Shown here: piece after piece, positions 50,008-57,933 of the stretch
Numbering within the stretch: the stretch's first letter is position 1
Layout of the letters: each line of letters starts with the position of its first letter
Translations under genes and position numbers: made by a program
NCBI GenBank assembly: GCA_963736005.1
Contig: CAVTNB010000001.1
Coordinates: 1,728,001 to 1,792,000, forward strand
Source of the DNA: an uncultured Pseudomonadota bacterium
GTDB taxonomy: Bacteria; Vulcanimicrobiota; Vulcanimicrobiia; Eremiobacterales; Eremiobacteraceae
Length of the DNA: 64,000 nucleotides
Reading direction: 5' to 3'
The notes under the pieces: generated by a model
The model's input: only the letters and a program-made list of their open reading frames with translations
Told to the model about the DNA's origin: nothing
The model's database searches: none

Positions 50008-51881
50008 TGTGGGCGGAATCCAGCGATGTGTCGCAGGATTTTGATGTCATCGTCATTGGGGGTGGACACGCCGGCTGCGAGGCCGCACTAGCCGCTGCAC
50101 GAATCGGCGTGCGCACGCTGTTGCTGAGCGCCAATCTCGACACGATCGGTTTGATGCCGTGCAATCCCTCCATTGGCGGCCCGGCGAAAGGCCAACTCGT
50201 TCGTGAAGTCGACGCGATCGGTGGCGAAATGGCGCGCTGCATCGATCGTACGTATCTCCACTCCCGCTGGCTAAACGAAAGCAAAGGCCCGGCTGTGCGA
50301 ACGCTGCGCGCACAAGCCGACAAGCGCGCGTACGCGCAACGAATGAAAGAAACGGTCGAGTCACAGCGCGGCCTTTGGGTGCTTCAGAGCCTCGTCACGG
50401 ATCTTCTCGTCGAGGCCGACGTCATCGACGGCGTGCGCTTAGCAACTGGCTCGTGCGTGCGCGCGCGTCAGGTCATCATTGCGACTGGAACATTCTTAGG
50501 CGGCAAGTTGTTTGCCGGCGAGAAAGGAATGCCGGGCGGGCGCGCGGGCGAAAAGCCCGCCCTGGGTTTGGGGCTAGCATTGCAGCAGCTTGGCTTTGAA
50601 ATGGGCCGGCTCAAAACTGGCACGCCGCCGCGCATTCACGCGGACAGCATCGACTATTCCAAAACCTTAGAGCAGCCTCCGCATCCAGTGCCGCTCATGT
50701 TCTCGTATTCGAGCGCGCCGCAATTTCCAGGTCCCCAACTCTCTTGCTTCATCACCAACACGAACGAGGCAACACACGAACTGATTCGGGCGAATCTGCA
50801 TCGCTCGCCGATGTATGGGCTGCATCTTATTGAAGGAAAGGGTCCCAGGTACTGTCCCTCTATAGAGGACAAGGTGATGAAGTTCTCCCACAACCCGAGT
50901 CACCAAGTCTTTCTTGAGCCGGAAGGCTGGCATACAAAGGAAGTTTACGTGGGTGGGTTCTCAACCTCGTTGCCCCCAGAGGTGCAACTCGACATGCTGC
51001 ACACATTGCCTGGCTTGGAGCGCGCGGATATGATGCGCTCAGGTTATGCAGTGGAGTATGATTTTGTGAGCCCAACGGAACTCTTCGCGACTCTCGAAAC
51101 AAAGAAAGTGTCGGGACTCTTTCACGCCGGGCAGATCAACGGAACATCGGGTTACGAAGAGGCGGCCGCGCAGGGAATTGTGGCGGGCATCAACGCAGCG
51201 CAACGCGCCCTCGGGCGAGAACAAGTGACGCTTTCGCGATCCTCGTCGTACATCGGCACGCTCGTTGACGACCTTATCACCAAGGGCACGATCGAACCCT
51301 ATCGGATGCTGACCTCCCGAGCAGAGCACCGCTTGTTGCTTCGTCACGACAACGCCGACGAGCGGCTCACACCGGTTGGTCGAAGGGTCGGTCTGGTGGG
51401 CGACGAGCCCTACGAAGCGTTCGGGAAGCGTCAGGAGCTCATGCGTGCGGAGCTTGGGCGCGTTCGGCAAGCACGACTGGACGTCCAGGGTGCCCAACGC
51501 TGGGGCGTCCAAGCTGGAACTCCGCTGGTTGAGATCTTGCGAAGGCCGGAGGTGGCGTATGCAGATGTCGCAGTAGACGATGCTTTTCCGGGCGAGTTGG
51601 GCGACCGGGTGGCCATCTGCGTGAAATATGAGGGGTATATTACGCGCCAAGCCGCGGCAATCGAGCGTCTGGCAAAAGCCGATGATGTGAGAATTCCGGA
51701 TGGCTTTGACTTCGAAAGTTGCCATGGGCTCTCGCGGGAAGCGCGAGAGAAACTGTCGCTACGACGACCGGCAACCCTAGGGCAGGCGAGTCGCATGCAA
51801 GGGATCACGCCATCAGACATAGCGGTGCTTTTCGTGTATGCTCGCAGGGAACAGGCTGGAGCGACTGGCCGCAGCGCGTGA
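50007..51881 (+). CDS. mnmG: tRNA uridine modification enzyme MnmG (GidA); true start may be GTG 50028
   Basis: [56 protein letters not shown]. Confidence 0.98.
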
Positions 51882-52546
51882 TCGAAGATGAAACCAGTTT
51901 GCTCCGAGCTGGGCTTCGGGAGCTCAAGCTTCAGGCGACAAGCGGGATCGTTCCCAAGTTGCTCGACTACGGTCTGTTCCTCTTAGAAGAAAACACCCGA
52001 ACGAACTTAACGGGAGCGCGCTCGTTAGCTAGCTTCATTACTAATCACGTTCTCGACAGCCTAGCTCCATTGTCATTGTTGGATCTTCAAGATCCCGTTA
52101 TCGACCTCGGGAGCGGTGGGGGATTGCCAGGCATTCCGGCGGCGATCGCCTATCCGGGCCACCATTTCGTCCTGATAGAACCGCGAGCCAAGCGCGTCAG
52201 GTTCCTAAAGATGGCAATAGAACGGCTTGAACTATACAATGTAGTAGCCGTGAAGGCATCAGCCCGGGGGCCAGGCGCGGCGCACTTTCGCGCGGTGTCT
52301 GGAACGGTCTTAATTCGTGCCCTTGCACCGCCGACGTTGGCCTTGGAACTGGGATTGGAGCTACTGCGTCCGGGCGGTACGCTGCTTCTCTACGAAGGCC
52401 GGTCCTCGCACCCCACCAATGCGCAGAAAAAGACCGCTGCGAGGCTAGGCGCAGGGGAAATTATGGTGAAACGAGTTCGCGTGCCTGGTTTGATGGCTGC
52501 CCGCCACGCCTGGATTATCAAGCGGGCGAAGAGCTCTCTCCGCTAG
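51878..52546 (+). CDS. rsmG: 16S rRNA m7G methyltransferase RsmG (GidB)
   Basis: [36 protein letters not shown] overlap with mnmG. Confidence 0.93.
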
Positions 52547-52979
52547 ATTGCGTCGTTCTGGTTTGGGCGAGGCCTAAAGCAAGGTGCTCGAGTAGCTCGA
52601 TGGGAGGCTTGCGAAAACGTTGCTTGAGAAACACCATCTCGCGCCAAATGTTGAAGCACGATGCCTTCTTGCCCGCCATTGGAAAGCGATCAAAGTGCGC
52701 GACAATGTTTGTGAGTTCACGAGCCTTGGTTACTCTAAAGTACGAGCCAGCCGTTCGATCCTTTCCGGGGAAACGAGGTTTGACATTATAAATCGATCCG
52801 ATCCCGCCAAAGAAGCTCTGGAGTCGACGCAGCACGGGAAGGTCGGCAGCCTCACGTTTGACGGCGAAATAAAGCGCCGGCACACGGCCAGACCGGCTGA
52901 ACGTGAAGGTTGCCTGAGCTTCGCAAAAGCCCGTCACATACCAGGGGTCGGGAAAATGTTTCACGGGAAACTGTTCCAC
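52518..52979 (-). CDS. Free-standing single-motif LAGLIDADG homing-endonuclease-fold protein, probably catalytically altered
   Basis: PWYVTGFCEAQATF (cf. PWFITGFxDAEGSF), DLPVLRRLQSFFGGIGSIY, FRV...L..IVAHFDRFPM..KK...F.IW. Confidence 0.8.
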   Translation of the reverse strand: MEQFPVKHFPDPWYVTGFCEAQATFTFSRSGRVPALYFAVKREAADLPVLRRLQSFFGGIGSIYNVKPRFPGKDRTAGSYFRVTKARELTNIVAHFDRFPMAGKKASCFNIWREMVFLKQRFRKPPIELLEHLALGLAQTRTTQSSGESSSPA

Positions 52980-52987
52980 ATGGAACA
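52957..52987. promoter_or_regulatory. Two tandem parS (ParB-loading) sites
   Basis: TGTTTCACGGGAAACT (52957-52972) and TGTTCCACATGGAACA (52972-52987) versus consensus TGTTTCACGTGAAACA; about 1.4 kb upstream of parAB. Confidence 0.85.
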
Positions 52988-53017
52988 GTTACAATCCTCA
53001 CAGGCGACAAGTCTCGG

Positions 53018-54400
53018 GTGAAATCCAACAAGCCCCTCGACGATCTGCTCGTGTCAACGCTTGGCCCGGGCCATGTCTTTTCCGTTGGTGGCCGCGTCCG
53101 GGACGAGGTGCTGTCTAGTCTCGGGCGACCACAGCCGGACTCGCCCGATCTCGATTACCTAGTCATTGGCGTCCCGTATGACGAAATAGTACATAGGTTG
53201 ACTAAGATAGGCTCTAGCGAGCTTGTCGGTGCGTCGTTCGGGGTCATCAAGTTCACTCGAGATGGCCGCACCGTTGACATCGCGCTTCCCAGACGTGAAC
53301 GGTCGACCGGCACTCACCATCGCGATTTTTTGATAGAGTTTTCGCCAGACATCCCCTTGGAAGACGATCTAAGCCGCCGAGATTTCCGCGTCAACATGAT
53401 GGCGCGCAACCTCGCGACGGGTAACCTGGTCGATCCGTTCGGCGGCGCCGATGATGTGCGCAACGCTCGACTGGCGATTCTCCGGGATGAGGCATTCGTG
53501 GAAGATCCTCTGCGCATCTTACGCGGCGCACAGTTCTCGGCTCGCTTCGACCTCGAGGCAACGCCCCAAACGCTTTCCGCCATGCGCGCCGCGGCGAATT
53601 TGACGAACACCATTGCGCCAGAGCGTGTTGCAGACGAGCTCATCAAACTCCTCACCAAATCCGCGAGACCGAGCGTGGGCTTCGAATTGTTGCGGGCGGT
53701 CGGCGCCCTCTCGCAAGTCATGCCCGAGCTCTTGGAAGGCTGGGGCGTGGAGCAAAACGAGTTTCATCGCTATACCGTGTACTATCACGCGTTGCGCTCG
53801 TGCGACGAAGCGCCTCCCGAGCTTGCCGTGCGCCTTGCCGCGCTCTTGCACGATGTCGGCAAGCCGCGAACAAAATCGGGCCCGCATTTTTATCGCCACG
53901 AGATCGTCGGCGAAGACATGGCGCGCACGATGTTGACGAGGCTGCGGTTTCCAACGGAGGTGGTGCAGACCGTAACGCAACTCATCAGACACCACATGTT
54001 TGCATCTGACGATTCGCTAACCGACGCGGCAGTCCGGCGCTTTATTCATCGCGTTGGCGCCGACCTAGTGGAGCAGCTCTTCGCTTTGAGGCGAGCGGAT
54101 ATTGTGGCATCGGGCTTGCCCGAACGCAACCCAGCCGAACTCGACCGATTCGCCGGACGAGTGAAGATGGAGCTCTCGGGGCCGAGCGCTTTGAGCATGA
54201 ATGACTTGGCCATCGACGGCGGCGCGGTCATCAGCATCATGCGCGAGCTCGGGCTTGCGGGCAAAGAGTTCCGCGGGGACGCCAGGGTTGGGGCCGCGTT
54301 GCGCGCATGCTTAGATGCCGTTCTTGAAAATCCCAAGAAAAACACCGTCGAAGATCTGCGCAAAGTTGCGCGGAATTTTCTCATGCACAAGGAAAGTTAG
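53018..54400 (+). CDS. cca: Class II tRNA nucleotidyltransferase (CCA-adding/poly(A) polymerase family) with HD domain
   Basis: VGGRVRD, DLD, RRDFRVN, EDPLRILR, LLHDVGKP; GTG 53018. Confidence 0.85.
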   Translation: MKSNKPLDDLLVSTLGPGHVFSVGGRVRDEVLSSLGRPQPDSPDLDYLVIGVPYDEIVHRLTKIGSSELVGASFGVIKFTRDGRTVDIALPRRERSTGTHHRDFLIEFSPDIPLEDDLSRRDFRVNMMARNLATGNLVDPFGGADDVRNARLAILRDEAFVEDPLRILRGAQFSARFDLEATPQTLSAMRAAANLTNTIAPERVADELIKLLTKSARPSVGFELLRAVGALSQVMPELLEGWGVEQNEFHRYTVYYHALRSCDEAPPELAVRLAALLHDVGKPRTKSGPHFYRHEIVGEDMARTMLTRLRFPTEVVQTVTQLIRHHMFASDDSLTDAAVRRFIHRVGADLVEQLFALRRADIVASGLPERNPAELDRFAGRVKMELSGPSALSMNDLAIDGGAVISIMRELGLAGKEFRGDARVGAALRACLDAVLENPKKNTVEDLRKVARNFLMHKES

Positions 54401-54405
54401 GTCTC

Positions 54406-55236
54406 ATGATGCACCGAAATGGCGGCACGGCGGTCGCGGGGAGCGCGGAGCTCGATGCTTCGCAACACCTGCGCCGCGCCCGGGTCGTTGCCATTACGAA
54501 TCAGAAGGGCGGCGTTGGCAAGACGACCACGGCGATTAACCTGAGCGCCGAACTTGCGCGGCGAGGCAAGCGGGTGCTCCTCGTAGACATCGATCCGCAA
54601 GGCAACGCCACGACGGGAATAGGCATCGAAAAGTCGTCCGTGCAGAGCTGCATGTACGACGTTATCCTCAAATCCAAAGAGCTGCACGAGGTCGTGCGAG
54701 AAACAGCCGTGAGCGGCTTGTGGGTCGCGCCCTCAACCTTGAATCTCGCCGGGGCCGAAATCGAACTCGTGTCTGCGATGTCGCGCGAGCTGCGGCTGCG
54801 CACCGCACTTGCGTCAAGTTTGGATCGCTACGATCACGTCTTCATCGACTGTCCGCCCTCGCTTGGTCTCTTAACCCTCAACGCCATGAGCGCCGCCGAT
54901 TGCCTCATCGTTCCCATTCAGGCTGAGTATTTCGCGCTCGAAGGTCTCGGCCAGTTGACGCACGTCATCGGTCTCGTCCACCAACACCTCAATCCGAACG
55001 TTCGCATCTTAGGCGTGCTCATCACGATGTTCGACGGACGAACGAACCTTGCGGCCCAGGTGGTTGAAGAAGTCGAGCGATATTTTCCTGGTTTGGTGTT
55101 TGCAACGCGCGTGCCGCGCAGCGTTCGCCTTTCGGAAGCGCCGTCGCATGGCGCACCTATCACGCTGTTCGATCCTAAAGGCAAAGGCGCCGCAGCCTAT
55201 GCCGCGCTTGCGCAGGAGGTTCTCGCTCGTGAATAA
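54406..55236 (+). CDS. parA: Chromosome partitioning ATPase ParA/Soj
   Basis: NQKGGVGKTTT, DPQGNAT, DCPPSLG, QAEYFALEG, RLSEAPSHG. Confidence 0.96.
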   Translation: MMHRNGGTAVAGSAELDASQHLRRARVVAITNQKGGVGKTTTAINLSAELARRGKRVLLVDIDPQGNATTGIGIEKSSVQSCMYDVILKSKELHEVVRETAVSGLWVAPSTLNLAGAEIELVSAMSRELRLRTALASSLDRYDHVFIDCPPSLGLLTLNAMSAADCLIVPIQAEYFALEGLGQLTHVIGLVHQHLNPNVRILGVLITMFDGRTNLAAQVVEEVERYFPGLVFATRVPRSVRLSEAPSHGAPITLFDPKGKGAAAYAALAQEVLARE

Positions 55237-56113
55237 ACCACGTGGACTTGGTCGCGGTTTGGGCGCATTGTTCCCTGGCGTTGCCTCGCCGAGTGTTCTC
55301 ACCCAGACTGCTTCGGGCACGCAGCTTTTCGAGATCGAGATTGAGAAAATCAAGCCGAACCCGCAGCAGCCGCGCCGCAACTTCGACGAAGAATCATTGA
55401 CCACGCTGGCACAGTCGATTACGGCGCACGGTTTGCTTGCGCCGATCATCGTGCGCCGGCATCCTGACCTCAGAGAGAGCTACGAAATTATTACCGGCGA
55501 GCGACGCTGGCGTGCAGCTCGCCTTGCCGGCCTGCGTACAATTGCGGCAATTGTGCGTGAAGCGCGAGCGGGCGAGGCGATCGAACTCGCGATTCTCGAA
55601 AACGTGCAGCGGGCGGATCTCAATCCGATAGAAGAAGCCTCGGGCTACCGTCAACTCATCGAGGAACACGACTTTACGCAGGAGACCGTCGCACAGCGAA
55701 TTGGCAAGAGCCGGCCGACCATCACCAATGCGCTTCGTCTGCTGACGTTGCCTGATGGGGTGCAAGCGCTCGTGCGCGATGGCAAACTCTCCGCGGGTCA
55801 CGCGCGGGCATTGGCGGCAATGCCGCACGCGCGAGCGCAAGAGCTAGCGAACCTTGCTGTCCGACAAGGTTTGAGCGTCCGCGAGCTCGAGCGGATGAGC
55901 GCCGCGCGGGAGAGCAAGAAAACTGCGCAGGGGGTACGACATGCGGCACTCCCGCCCGACGTCGCCGAAGCCGAAAACCGCCTGCGCTTCGCCCTGGCGA
56001 CGCGCGTCTCGCTGCACCCGCGAGCCGCTGGCGGAGGCACGATCGAAATCCAGTATGCGGACGACGGGGAGCTCACGCGCATCCTCGATCGAGTCGCTCC
56101 ACAAGAATACTAG
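55229..56113 (+). CDS. parB: Chromosome partitioning CTPase ParB/Spo0J
   Basis: GLGRGLGAL, NPQQPR, GERRWRA, ENVQRADLNPIEEA, KSRPTITN.LRLL, GHARAL; GTG 55229. Confidence 0.97.
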   Translation: MNKPRGLGRGLGALFPGVASPSVLTQTASGTQLFEIEIEKIKPNPQQPRRNFDEESLTTLAQSITAHGLLAPIIVRRHPDLRESYEIITGERRWRAARLAGLRTIAAIVREARAGEAIELAILENVQRADLNPIEEASGYRQLIEEHDFTQETVAQRIGKSRPTITNALRLLTLPDGVQALVRDGKLSAGHARALAAMPHARAQELANLAVRQGLSVRELERMSAARESKKTAQGVRHAALPPDVAEAENRLRFALATRVSLHPRAAGGGTIEIQYADDGELTRILDRVAPQEY

Positions 56114-56127
56114 CGAAAGGTCGTACG

Positions 56128-57933
56128 ATGAAACGCACTCGGGTGATGGCAGGGGCGATCGCCGCAGTCCTGCTGTCCTCAGTCATGACGGCGGCCGCGC
56201 CGCCGAAATACGCGTCCGTGATCCTGATCTGGCGAGTGCCCGCACCACAAGCGCAAAGCGAGGACGTGCAGGCAGTCGAGGCCGGGCTCGTCGCGGTCAA
56301 CTTCCTTGCCCCGCAGCTGAGCGCCCTGGCCAGGCACCCGGCCGCCAAGGTGACCCTTGCGCTGGACCCGGCGTTCGTCGACGCGCTCGAGCGCGCCGCA
56401 ACTGGTCAGGATGCGATCGCTTTGCTTGCGTCCGGCGCACTAGGCGCTGACGATCCGCGCGCGGCTGAGCTGCTCGCTGTGCTTTCCACGACGGTCGTGC
56501 CCGCAGCGAATTTGCAAGGCGCGCGGGCGGTGACGCGTTTTGTTTCCGATGCCGAGGCGTCGCGGCTTGCGCTCATGGGCGACAGCGCGGCCAGATTTTC
56601 GCACGGCGATGATGCGGATTATGCAGCAACCGCACTGCTGCTCTCGCTCGTCGGCAGCGGGTATGCGCGAGGCCAAGAAGCTCTCCTCAACCGTGACGCG
56701 CTGACGGTGCACGATCTCGCTGCGCTCGCCCCCGAATTCGCGCTGGCATGCAACGACGTGCTTGCACGACTGAAGAAAGCGAGCGCGAGCGGAGCGGTTG
56801 AGTTGGCGGCGCTTCCTGCCTACGAACCAATCGTGCCGCTGGTCATCGATGCGGCCGGTCGAAACGAACGCGTGCCGTTCACAGTTGCGCTCAACGGCGG
56901 CGCGGATGCCGCGGCGGCGGTTGACGAAGGCATGCGCGCTGTTCGTTCGCTCGATCCAACGCACCCTGACCCAGGCCTTGTGTTGCCGAGTGGCGCCTAT
57001 GACGACGAGACGGCCACGTTGCTGCAGTCCCATCGCGCACAATACGGCGTGTTTTCCGAGCGCGTGGTCAAGGCGAGCGTGGGCGCAGCAGCGGCATCCG
57101 TTGCAGATGCGCGCAGCGCCGCATATCGCGCGTACTTGATGGAAACGAGCAAGACCACTACCTTGCCGATCTTTTTCTGCAGCGATTCGGCAAGCACGTC
57201 GATCGATGCGCAGCCGCTGGCCTCGCCAGCTTCGGCAATGGCGGATCGGTTGCAGTCTGTTGTCAAAGCAGCGCTGGACGTGTCGCCAAACGAGAGCGCA
57301 CCGGTCGTCGTTCTGTGTTTGCCGGCAAACGGCTCGATCTTGCACCGTGCGGATCGTGCGTCGGCTCTGGATTTTATCGCAGCCGCGCTTTCAGGCAATA
57401 AATCAAAGGCGCAGACGCCCCATCAATTCTTAAAGGCGCATCCGCCCACGGCCGACACGTACGGTTACGAGGCGGCAAGCGACGTCGGTGGCTTCGATAT
57501 GTGGATGGGTTCCCAAAATCAGATGAGCATGTGGAACGCGCTTTCGGACGCGCGCAGGGCAGCTGGGGGCGACGCCGCTCTTTCAAGTGCGGCAATACGC
57601 GACGCGCTGCTCCGGGCAGAGTCGGGTCGCTGGTTCGCCACGCTCATGCTGCCGCAGCCGCGCTATTTGACCGAAGCAACGCTCGCGCAATTCCGTGCGC
57701 TCATCGCGCAGATCTACCGCGCCGCAAACAAACCGGTGCCAGCCAGCATCGCCCCCGTCAAGCTCAATGCCACTCCTCCATCGAGCACACCGACACCGAC
57801 TGCGACGCGCGCGCCGAGCCCTGCCAGCTCACCCGCGAACGCGAGCGGGGCGAAGCCTAGCAGTTCGCCCCCAAACTTGCCAACTCCAAGTTCAAGTGCA
57901 TCGCCGCTGTTAAGCCCATCCCCGGCGACTTGA
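56128..57933 (+). CDS. Exported GH57-fold protein with degenerate catalytic motifs and Pro/Ser-rich tail
   Basis: Signal peptide; HP..KVTL...P, VEL...PAYEPIVPL, WMG....W..L..AR and AESGRWF resemble GH57 amylopullulanase blocks. Confidence 0.65.
   Translation: MKRTRVMAGAIAAVLLSSVMTAAAPPKYASVILIWRVPAPQAQSEDVQAVEAGLVAVNFLAPQLSALARHPAAKVTLALDPAFVDALERAATGQDAIALLASGALGADDPRAAELLAVLSTTVVPAANLQGARAVTRFVSDAEASRLALMGDSAARFSHGDDADYAATALLLSLVGSGYARGQEALLNRDALTVHDLAALAPEFALACNDVLARLKKASASGAVELAALPAYEPIVPLVIDAAGRNERVPFTVALNGGADAAAAVDEGMRAVRSLDPTHPDPGLVLPSGAYDDETATLLQSHRAQYGVFSERVVKASVGAAAASVADARSAAYRAYLMETSKTTTLPIFFCSDSASTSIDAQPLASPASAMADRLQSVVKAALDVSPNESAPVVVLCLPANGSILHRADRASALDFIAAALSGNKSKAQTPHQFLKAHPPTADTYGYEAASDVGGFDMWMGSQNQMSMWNALSDARRAAGGDAALSSAAIRDALLRAESGRWFATLMLPQPRYLTEATLAQFRALIAQIYRAANKPVPASIAPVKLNATPPSSTPTPTATRAPSPASSPANASGAKPSSSPPNLPTPSSSASPLLSPSPAT

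Follow-up and report, generated by a model that had tools for sequence, protein, structure and literature searches.

Homing endonucleases colonise ribosomal RNA (rRNA) genes, transfer RNA (tRNA) genes, and conserved coding sites by means of introns and inteins. Free-standing homing endonuclease genes occur in phages, where the Seg and Mob genes of "intronless homing" encode GIY-YIG or HNH enzymes. At the bacterial centromere site parS, the Noc protein is a paralogue of ParB that reads the Noc-binding site (NBS), a palindrome derived from parS. WhiA (DUF199) is derived from a LAGLIDADG protein, lacks the catalytic acids, does not cut, and is linked to parAB expression in Streptomyces (PMC3384342). 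The domesticated homing endonucleases that reviews discuss are WhiA, HO, and the maturases (PMC3384342). The window analysed here is a stretch of 64,000 nucleotides from an uncultured bacterium (GenBank assembly GCA_963736005.1, contig CAVTNB010000001.1, positions 1,728,001 to 1,792,000), and positions are counted from its first letter. It contains a gene for a single-motif LAGLIDADG protein whose start lies over parS-like sites. At the level of the family, judged from sequence, this gene is best described as part of a homing-endonuclease lineage with its niche, and probably its target, at chromosomal parS. For the copy in the window, about an even chance is given to the reading that the lineage settled at the parS centromere and that the protein is retained in this genome as a homodimer that binds DNA without cleaving it.

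The open reading frame (ORF) begins inside two parS-like 16-mers that overlap by one base. The minus-strand reading of both is codons 1-8 of the ORF, GTG GAA CAG TTT CCC GTG AAA CAT. The initial annotation had placed the gene start over two tandem parS sites, and the frame does read through 52957-52972 and 52972-52987. Mismatches are counted here against TGTTNCACGTGNAACA, which we take to be the 16-bp chromosomal parS consensus and on which all mismatch counts rest. The assembly has 2,844,058 bases in 6 contigs and is 84% complete. Only six 16-mers in all of it come within two mismatches of this consensus, so the overlap of the gene start with parS is more than chance. Of the six, only the window pair and AGTTCCAGGTGGAACA on C1 are palindrome-like with both arms intact, and the distal site of the window pair is the sole site within one mismatch in the assembly. 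The sites at 52957..52987 are the only convincing parS-like sites of the assembly. The genome seemingly has one parS locus, and most genomes of the same family also show exactly one site within one mismatch. With one site per genome, chromosome segregation therefore seems to be run from a single centromere site between rsmG and cca.

The LAGLIDADG fold first proposed for the ORF was borne out by Pfam, by alignment to solved structures, by an AlphaFold model, and by Foldseek. Pfam LAGLIDADG_1 (PF00961) matches residues 16-115 with E=1e-08 and 36.4 bits, against a curated cutoff of 23.1. A search of solved-structure sequences with the ORF protein returned 60 distinct chains at E<=1, with a top value of 2e-13, and all are LAGLIDADG meganucleases. 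No NCBIfam model matches the ORF. The AlphaFold model, made with the family alignment as input, has a predicted local distance difference test score (pLDDT) of 90.2 and a predicted template modelling score (pTM) of 0.82. Its secondary structure consists of helices at 12-22, 44-56, and 86-98 and strands at 23-28, 35-43, 62-66, and 78-83. The LAGLIDADG core is followed by two long C-terminal helices, which are conserved within the clade described below. The top Foldseek matches in the Protein Data Bank (PDB) are I-OnuI-family domains, with E about 2e-8 and query-normalised template modelling (TM) scores of 0.6-0.7. The homodimeric I-TnaI is also matched (TM 0.66/0.69), and the E values of the hits range from about 1e-8 to 1e-7.

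The catalytic acid, which had been reported as lost, is indeed missing. The segment GFCEAQATF aligns to GLIDAEGSF of the solved chains, with Gln22-Ala23 in the position of the catalytic Glu-Gly. The Gln22 codon is CAG (52914-52916, minus strand), where the family consensus has the catalytic Glu (EGEG), and the acidic metal-binding residue (Asp/Glu) at the end of the motif is thus absent from the window protein. The acid-to-amide variants I-CreI D20N and I-MsoI D22N are inactive in vivo and without double-strand cleavage in vitro (PMC2655683). By analogy, Gln22 should abolish double-strand cleavage by the window protein. In a family alignment of 42 sequences, 9 positions are invariant and 24 near-invariant, and the window protein retains all of them, including Lys105 and the predicted beta-strand residues T26, S28, Y37, F38, Y64, Y80, and R82.

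A homodimer, also part of the initial annotation, is predicted by a two-copy model of the ORF protein in which the LAGLIDADG helix forms the contact. The model scores 0.53, against 0.00 for the best control, and places residues 9-22, 45-52, and 99-104 in the interface. At least 94% of contacts are common to the runs, and the pLDDT of the partner is at least 85. The same mark is passed by 20 of 30 solved homo-pairs and by 1 of 23 single chains. The score may go back to solved dimers of the I-CreI type that the model remembers, and reflect likeness only.

Selection was measured as the ratio of nonsynonymous to synonymous substitution rates (dN/dS) by the Nei-Gojobori method, from the DPWY codon to the stop, leaving out the parS-encoded codons. 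The ORF copies of G000 (the window's genome), G002, and L120 all carry Gln. Their dN/dS is 0.120 for G000-G002 (dN 0.089, dS 0.743), 0.121 for G000-L120, and 0.128 for G002-L120. With the last 11 codons, which overlap rsmG, taken off, the three pairs give 0.084-0.093. For the same genomes, dN/dS is 0.16-0.19 for rsmG (dS 0.745 for G000-G002) and 0.10-0.19 for cca (dS 0.53 for that pair). The match in dS between the ORF and its flanks fits vertical descent together with the rsmG-cca region. A second, unrelated Gln clade (L125, L127, L130, and L133) has dN/dS of 0.06-0.15 at dS 0.58-0.79, and a His-bearing pair has 0.12; the Glu-bearing neighbours of the second Gln clade have 0.07-0.24. Low values are thus found in three acid-less lineages, and relaxed constraint after the loss of the acid is not seen. 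The dead form is conserved like housekeeping genes, and the selected activity is therefore independent of the catalytic acid. Selection without a catalytic acid is a signature of domestication.

Of 117 candidates from a protein search, 97 are homologues at E<=1e-3, most of them 130-190 amino acids in length. Homologue tallies cover the 95 that contain the motif region, the other 2 being truncated at the N-terminus. An N-terminal peptide that translates parS is present in 68 of these 95. It takes the form METFSRGT/METFSRET or MF.(M/L)EQFPV(K/E)H, and the window protein has the latter. The clade spans at least six phyla, and metagenomes contain at least 529 copies.

At the DNA level, 52 clade loci (L010-L058 from named genome records, and G000, G013, and G023) were compared with 31 outgroup loci (L059-L089). 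A 16-mer with parS-like arms lies within 120 nt upstream of the DPWY codon in 38 of the 52, and the inner 12-bp core of parS lies within 150 nt upstream in 39 of the 52. Taking the union of the two parS-like models, a site is found within 150 nt upstream in 48/52 clade loci and 0/31 outgroup loci. The rest of the clade loci, 365 kb, contains 3 matches to the core. Further metagenome loci have such a site in 71 of 80 cases, and the window sites at 52957 and 52972 likewise lie within 150 nt of the 5' end of their gene. Clade loci usually have two sites separated by 15 nt: a parS-like one and a palindrome with parS-type arms. This second palindrome has a variable, often AT-rich centre, with the start codon at its dyad. 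It is found only in gene-bearing genomes.

The parA gene is present within the fetched 4 kb in 42 of the 49 loci L010-L058 and in 0 of the 31 outgroup loci. Gene order differs by label. It is rsmG> <LAGLIDADG parS cca> parA> parB> in loci labelled Eremiobacterota or Vulcanimicrobiota, parS LAGLIDADG> parA> parB> in those labelled Omnitrophota or Planctomycetota, and <parB <parA parS LAGLIDADG> in those labelled Thermoanaerobaculia. In the Velamenicoccus order (L090-L104), the gene stop is 0-10 nt from the ATG of parA, and the junction reads TAATG in 9 of 14 loci. A promoter-like CTTGAT...TTAAAT stands just upstream of the first parS in L090-L104, and the par operon there seems to begin with this gene. 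Some copies (L121, L126, L130, L019, and L150) have a parS-like site upstream without adjoining parAB. The neighbours of such copies are bioA, bioF, or bioD-like genes (aminotransferase/dethiobiotin-synthase type), rsmG, and a UDG-family gene. As copies away from parAB keep the upstream parS, the constant partner of the gene is parS DNA, faced by the 5' end of the gene.

In a quick maximum-likelihood tree built from 81 proteins, 51 parS-linked rows are split from 30 outgroup rows with a support of 100 in the Shimodaira-Hasegawa-like approximate likelihood ratio test (SH-aLRT). In this tree, the window protein groups with other copies labelled Eremiobacterota (support 91-94), and clade rows cluster largely by phylum label, with many weak inner branches. 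The four outgroup loci that were tested all lie inside bacterial 23S rRNA genes, with matches 1.4-1.9 kb longer than the model, and 3 of the 4 contain group I intron matches. All 31 outgroup proteins retain (E/D)GEG. Given the split in the tree, the location of the outgroup inside 23S rRNA genes, and its retained motif, the clade is taken to descend from 23S-rRNA-intron homing endonucleases.

Within the family, the loss of the acid is partial. The catalytic position in the 95 homologues reads E 52, D 3, Q 17, A 8, G 8, V 3, I 2, S 1, and L 1. In 80 metagenome loci, it reads E 63, D 2, Q 6, A 4, H 2, C 1, L 1, and I 1. Glu is kept in all 34 copies labelled Omnitrophota or Planctomycetota. The complete Velamenicoccus archaeovorus genome (L046) has a Glu-bearing copy. 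Among the 7 Eremiobacterota copies, it is kept in one (G013), with Gln in G000, G002, and G023, Cys in G004, and Ser in L016 and L018; the reading frame is intact in all 7, including the 6 that have no acid. EAEA is retained in P0004, which shares 78% identity with the window protein, and the Gln of the window subclade is therefore a fairly recent single-base change. The replacements in the 95 homologues are unevenly spread, with Gln in 17, Ala in 8, Gly in 8, and Val in 3; Lys is missing (0) even though Glu-to-Lys is a single transition. The counts are phylogenetically non-independent, and the skew may reflect selection for binding without cutting.

The gene is patchily distributed. Among the relatives of the window genome, it is present in 5 of 41 genomes, the window genome included. 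The other carriers are 4 of the 24 further genomes of the family; the gene is missing from 17 genomes of the family's other eight genera and from 16 in the class's two other families. One genome flagged as unpublished (G013) enters this count, the synteny count below, and some of the dN/dS pairs. In the phylum Omnitrophota, 10 of 201 sampled genomes match at E<=1e-15, and in the Velamenicoccus order, of 26 loci that extend 900 nt or more upstream of parA, 14 have the gene there. Six genomes were checked for copy number and have one copy each; no extra copy was found in the window's genome. One family member (L017) lies beside bacterial-type cca and ksgA (RrnaAD) on a contig labelled as a metagenome-assembled genome of a Pacearchaeota archaeon, a label that may be a binning or labelling error.

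All five gene-bearing relatives have the gene between rsmG and parS-cca. In four gene-free relatives that were inspected (G001 and G003 of the same genus, G005, and G007), a single parS with one mismatch, an outer one, stands before cca in every case, and no second palindrome was found at the rsmG-cca junction. The rsmG stop is 4-32 nt from parS in G001 and G003. The insert is thus, by comparison with these sites, essentially a bare ORF plus the second palindrome. This palindrome may be a scar of cleavage and repair or the operator of the protein. In L095 (genome G166), a degenerate, truncated remnant of the gene lies upstream of parA. It has about 50 codons starting PWFINGFCEAEAAF, stops just before parA, and is flanked by canonical parS copies; its intact sister copies adjoin a 17-nt parS variant.

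A perfect parS within 150 nt upstream was found in 0 of 114 distinct gene-bearing loci. The best upstream site has at most two mismatches in 16 of 24 acid-less copies, versus 28 of 90 copies with the acid. True empty sites of the Velamenicoccus order (L105-L107) have 2-4 perfect TGTTCCACGTGGAACA copies upstream of parA, and the L095 remnant locus has one perfect copy and one with a single mismatch. At occupied sites in this order, the parS form is 17 nt long, the gene-facing arm being longer by one base. This 17-nt site resembles a hybrid of the canonical half-site and that of AGTTTCCACGTGGAAACT, an 18-bp palindrome that replaces the canonical 16-mer upstream of parA in the gene-free Omnitrophota loci L112-L116. 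The gene-bearing genomes of the order have no site within one mismatch anywhere in the genome. Five genomes of the order without an intact copy do have one (G250, G251, G259, G166 with the remnant, and G249 with a poor match), and other gene-free genomes use a different parS type, GTTTCCACGTGGAAAC. In the window's family, a site within one mismatch is present in 2 of 5 gene-bearing versus 16 of 20 gene-free genomes, a tally that includes the unpublished G008 and G011. Such an anti-correlation of the gene with canonical parS would be expected if active enzymes cannot coexist with canonical parS. It is suggestive only and serves as a lead, because the genomes are related and part of the mismatch follows from the single base that the two 16-mers share.

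These observations can be joined in a model for the window. The ancestor would have been a homing endonuclease of a 23S-rRNA group I intron, from which one clade became anchored at parS. The start codon would have come to lie in a parS-like palindrome, with the frame running through the resident parS and into the LAGLIDADG domain. In the window lineage, probably Eremiobacterota, the metal-binding Glu would have become Gln22, and cleavage would have been lost while purifying selection like that on rsmG and cca stayed. Since the LAGLIDADG saddle has a conserved beta-sheet surface and the gene lies on a palindrome, sequence-specific DNA binding at its own parS is the most economical function. The predicted I-CreI-like homodimer would occupy one of the two overlapping palindromes at the 5' end with its conserved saddle. 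Binding at the genome's only parS may compete or cooperate with ParB loading, and it may also, or instead, regulate the transcription of the gene itself and of the divergent cca-parA-parB unit. The initial annotation had also proposed that the gene may be repressed by ParB loading. A wider proposal, held as tentative and rather doubtful, is that the clade has become a so far unrecognised inhabitant of bacterial chromosomal centromeres whose product reads a parS-derived palindrome, and that dead LAGLIDADG versions, kept by selection, are a third DNA-binding player beside ParB that could gate ParB loading or shield parS from cutting relatives, with parS serving as both homing site and workplace.

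Several observations weigh against a bound, host-serving protein in the window. A scan of 52300-53400 for sigma-70-like promoters gave 0 sites, and with about 30 nt between the distal palindrome and the cca start, the ORF promoter would have to lie in or beyond cca. The gene is present in only 5 of 41 relatives, and a core centromere factor would be more widespread. The catalytic Glu is still present in most of the wider family, as would be expected of ordinary selfish homing more than of a host function. Few pairs, related to one another, stand behind the dN/dS values, and the comparison was restricted to close pairs because dS between genera is saturated (above 1 or undefined). The 29-nt overlap with rsmG adds constraint of its own, yet removing the tail lowers dN/dS further.

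The patchiness also belongs to the case for an ordinary selfish homing endonuclease gene at parS whose copy in the window was recently inactivated and is drifting to loss with no host function. The counts of 5/41 relatives and 10/201 Omnitrophota genomes, one copy per genome, the truncated remnant in L095, an outgroup of rRNA-intron endonucleases, the acid in 55 of 95 homologues, and GC values slightly under those of the neighbours are all as this account would have them. It is nevertheless considered improbable for this copy, because dN/dS is 0.12 across three Gln genomes at dS up to 0.74 and equals that of the housekeeping neighbours, two further acid-less lineages agree, all invariant residues are retained, and the frame is intact in 7 of 7 Eremiobacterota copies although 6 of them have no acid. 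The initial annotation had offered, as its own alternative, a homing element that used parS as a niche and then decayed. The niche stands, given the patchy, single-copy distribution and one decayed remnant, and the decay of this copy is contradicted by the dN/dS of 0.12. That annotation had also proposed testing for a conserved loss of the acid, which does not hold family-wide with Glu or Asp in 55/95 homologues and Glu in 34/34 Omnitrophota or Planctomycetota copies. It had further proposed testing for dN/dS below 1 and for rsmG-X-parS-parAB synteny; dN/dS is far below 1 in the Gln-bearing pairs, and the order rsmG-X-parS-cca-parAB is seen in 5/5 gene-bearing relatives. Its own tests for domestication were thus passed on fold, synteny, and selection.

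A catalytic role could persist if the Gln22 protein remained an endonuclease or nickase through residual metal binding by Gln22 or Glu20 and acted on parS-bearing DNA. The pocket is otherwise conserved, Lys105 included, a single-site I-MsoI D22N retained detectable nicking (PMC2655683), and the 0/114 gene-bearing loci with a perfect parS nearby are what a parS-cutting enzyme would impose. This too is improbable, since a homodimer would carry Gln in both active sites, I-CreI D20N and I-MsoI D22N lack double-strand cleavage (same source), and other Eremiobacterota copies have Cys or Ser, which cannot bind metal likewise; the acid-less copies also adjoin somewhat better parS sites (16/24 versus 28/90 with at most two mismatches). 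The dead dimer might instead protect the site by sitting on the parS locus and shielding the only centromere from active relatives on foreign DNA. Related genomes do contain both Glu and dead copies (Glu is found in G013 of genus g2 and in P0004, at 78% identity), selection persists without catalysis, and the prevalence of Gln and absence of Lys among replacements fit selection for binding and not cutting. But nothing indicates that active copies circulate in this population, and a dS that equals that of the flanks points to vertical descent in this case, which leaves protection unlikely. A selected function other than parS binding, by contact with ParA or ParB, by a WhiA-type loss of DNA binding, or as an RNA chaperone like the maturases, is judged very unlikely. 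LAGLIDADG proteins did become maturases, and PDB entry 2ab5 is among the weak matches; the LAGLIDADG domain of WhiA may no longer bind DNA (PMC3384342); and the gene stop abuts the parA start in one Omnitrophota order. Against this, no intron is nearby, the constant partner across phyla is parS DNA and no particular neighbour gene, and some of the positions conserved between phyla lie in the strands of the DNA-binding saddle. Retention as a non-cleaving binder at parS is the preferred reading.

The features of the locus are listed in Table 1.

Table 1. Features of the rsmG-parB region of the window, with positions and strand.
Feature	Position	Strand	Basis or remark
rsmG (gidB), conserved part	51938..52546	+	TIGR00138 E=3.9e-33; longest ORF starts 51719
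LAGLIDADG ORF, single-motif, 153 aa	52518..52979	-	GTG start at 52979; alternative GTG at 52964
Convergent overlap of the poorly conserved 3' tail of the ORF with the last rsmG codons, 29 nt	52518..52546		ORF list, comparison with relatives
LAGLIDADG motif, residues 15-23 (VTGFCEAQA)	52911..52937	-	Alignments; family motif VTGF.EGEG
Proximal parS-like 16-mer TGTTTCACGGGAAACT	52957..52972		2 mismatches to TGTTNCACGTGNAACA; matches single parS of gene-free relatives
Distal parS-like palindrome TGTTCCACATGGAACA	52972..52987		1 mismatch, central; holds ORF start codon
cca (tRNA nucleotidyltransferase)	53018..54400	+	GTG start at 53018; divergent from LAGLIDADG ORF; 30 nt past 52987
parA	54406..55236	+	Model match
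parB (start approximate)	55241..56113	+	TIGR00180 E=2e-56

The gene had been described as free-standing, and this holds, as both rsmG and cca are intact and no intron family of Rfam was found in 51000-55000. The sole Rfam match there is a chance-level riboswitch (E=0.65, below the gathering score). An intron or intein context of the ORF was rejected for these reasons. The end coordinate given initially, 53020, also covers the 38-nt spacer and the cca start codon. The cca gene matches models of CCA-adding enzymes with E=3e-58, under their curated cutoffs. The GC content of the ORF is 0.548, against 0.58-0.63 in the neighbours, and its GC at third codon positions (GC3) is 0.59, against 0.63-0.70; this gap was set aside as too weak for an argument from foreign composition. 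Straight after parB is an ORF of 601 amino acids (56128-57933, plus strand) with a signal-like N-terminus and a Ser/Pro/Thr-rich C-terminal tail.

If the reading is true, a lineage living at chromosomal parS across at least six phyla is a new kind of niche for homing endonucleases, and one that creates a conflict between a selfish nuclease and chromosome segregation. The Eremiobacterota branch would be a natural experiment in which the acid is gone and selection stays at the level of housekeeping neighbours. Such domestication of LAGLIDADG proteins has previously been documented mainly in WhiA and HO, and what the window adds is a branch without the catalytic acid that is still under selection. 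Should the protein bind parS-like palindromes, it would give a direct handle on the modulation of ParB loading at a single centromere, and a ready-made meganuclease scaffold that natural evolution has rendered non-cutting and whose palindromic target is defined. Literature searches, which reached few subscription journals, found no description of a LAGLIDADG gene at parS and returned WhiA papers and general reviews. LAGLIDADG is not mentioned in PMC8987985.

Among known systems, the homodimeric rRNA-intron enzymes (I-CreI, I-MsoI, I-CeuI, and I-TnaI) share with the window protein the Pfam family, the fold, a length of about 150 amino acids, and one LAGLIDADG helix, which in the window protein is predicted to form the dimer interface as it does in theirs. 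A palindromic recognition site of about 20 bp would be expected for both, and the sister group of the clade lies inside bacterial 23S rRNA genes. Unlike these enzymes, the window gene is free-standing, lies at parS and not in rRNA genes, has Gln for the acid, and is under purifying selection without it. The Seg and Mob genes are similar in being minimal ORFs between conserved genes, beside a presumed target that is changed in the gene-bearing allele; the window gene differs in that it is of the LAGLIDADG type, on a bacterial chromosome, at a non-coding centromere site, and catalytically disabled. With Noc and its NBS, the window protein may share the role of a second protein at a parS-derived palindrome beside ParB, which for the window protein is a proposal; its fold is unrelated, and its origin is in a mobile element. 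WhiA, which the initial annotation had cited as a precedent, is likewise a bacterial LAGLIDADG-derived protein with no catalytic acid and a connection to par. It serves as an analogy only, since no Pfam family of the WhiA type matches the ORF at E<=1 and the architecture is different: the window protein has a single domain and no helix-turn-helix, keeps Lys105, and is encoded by a patchily distributed gene.

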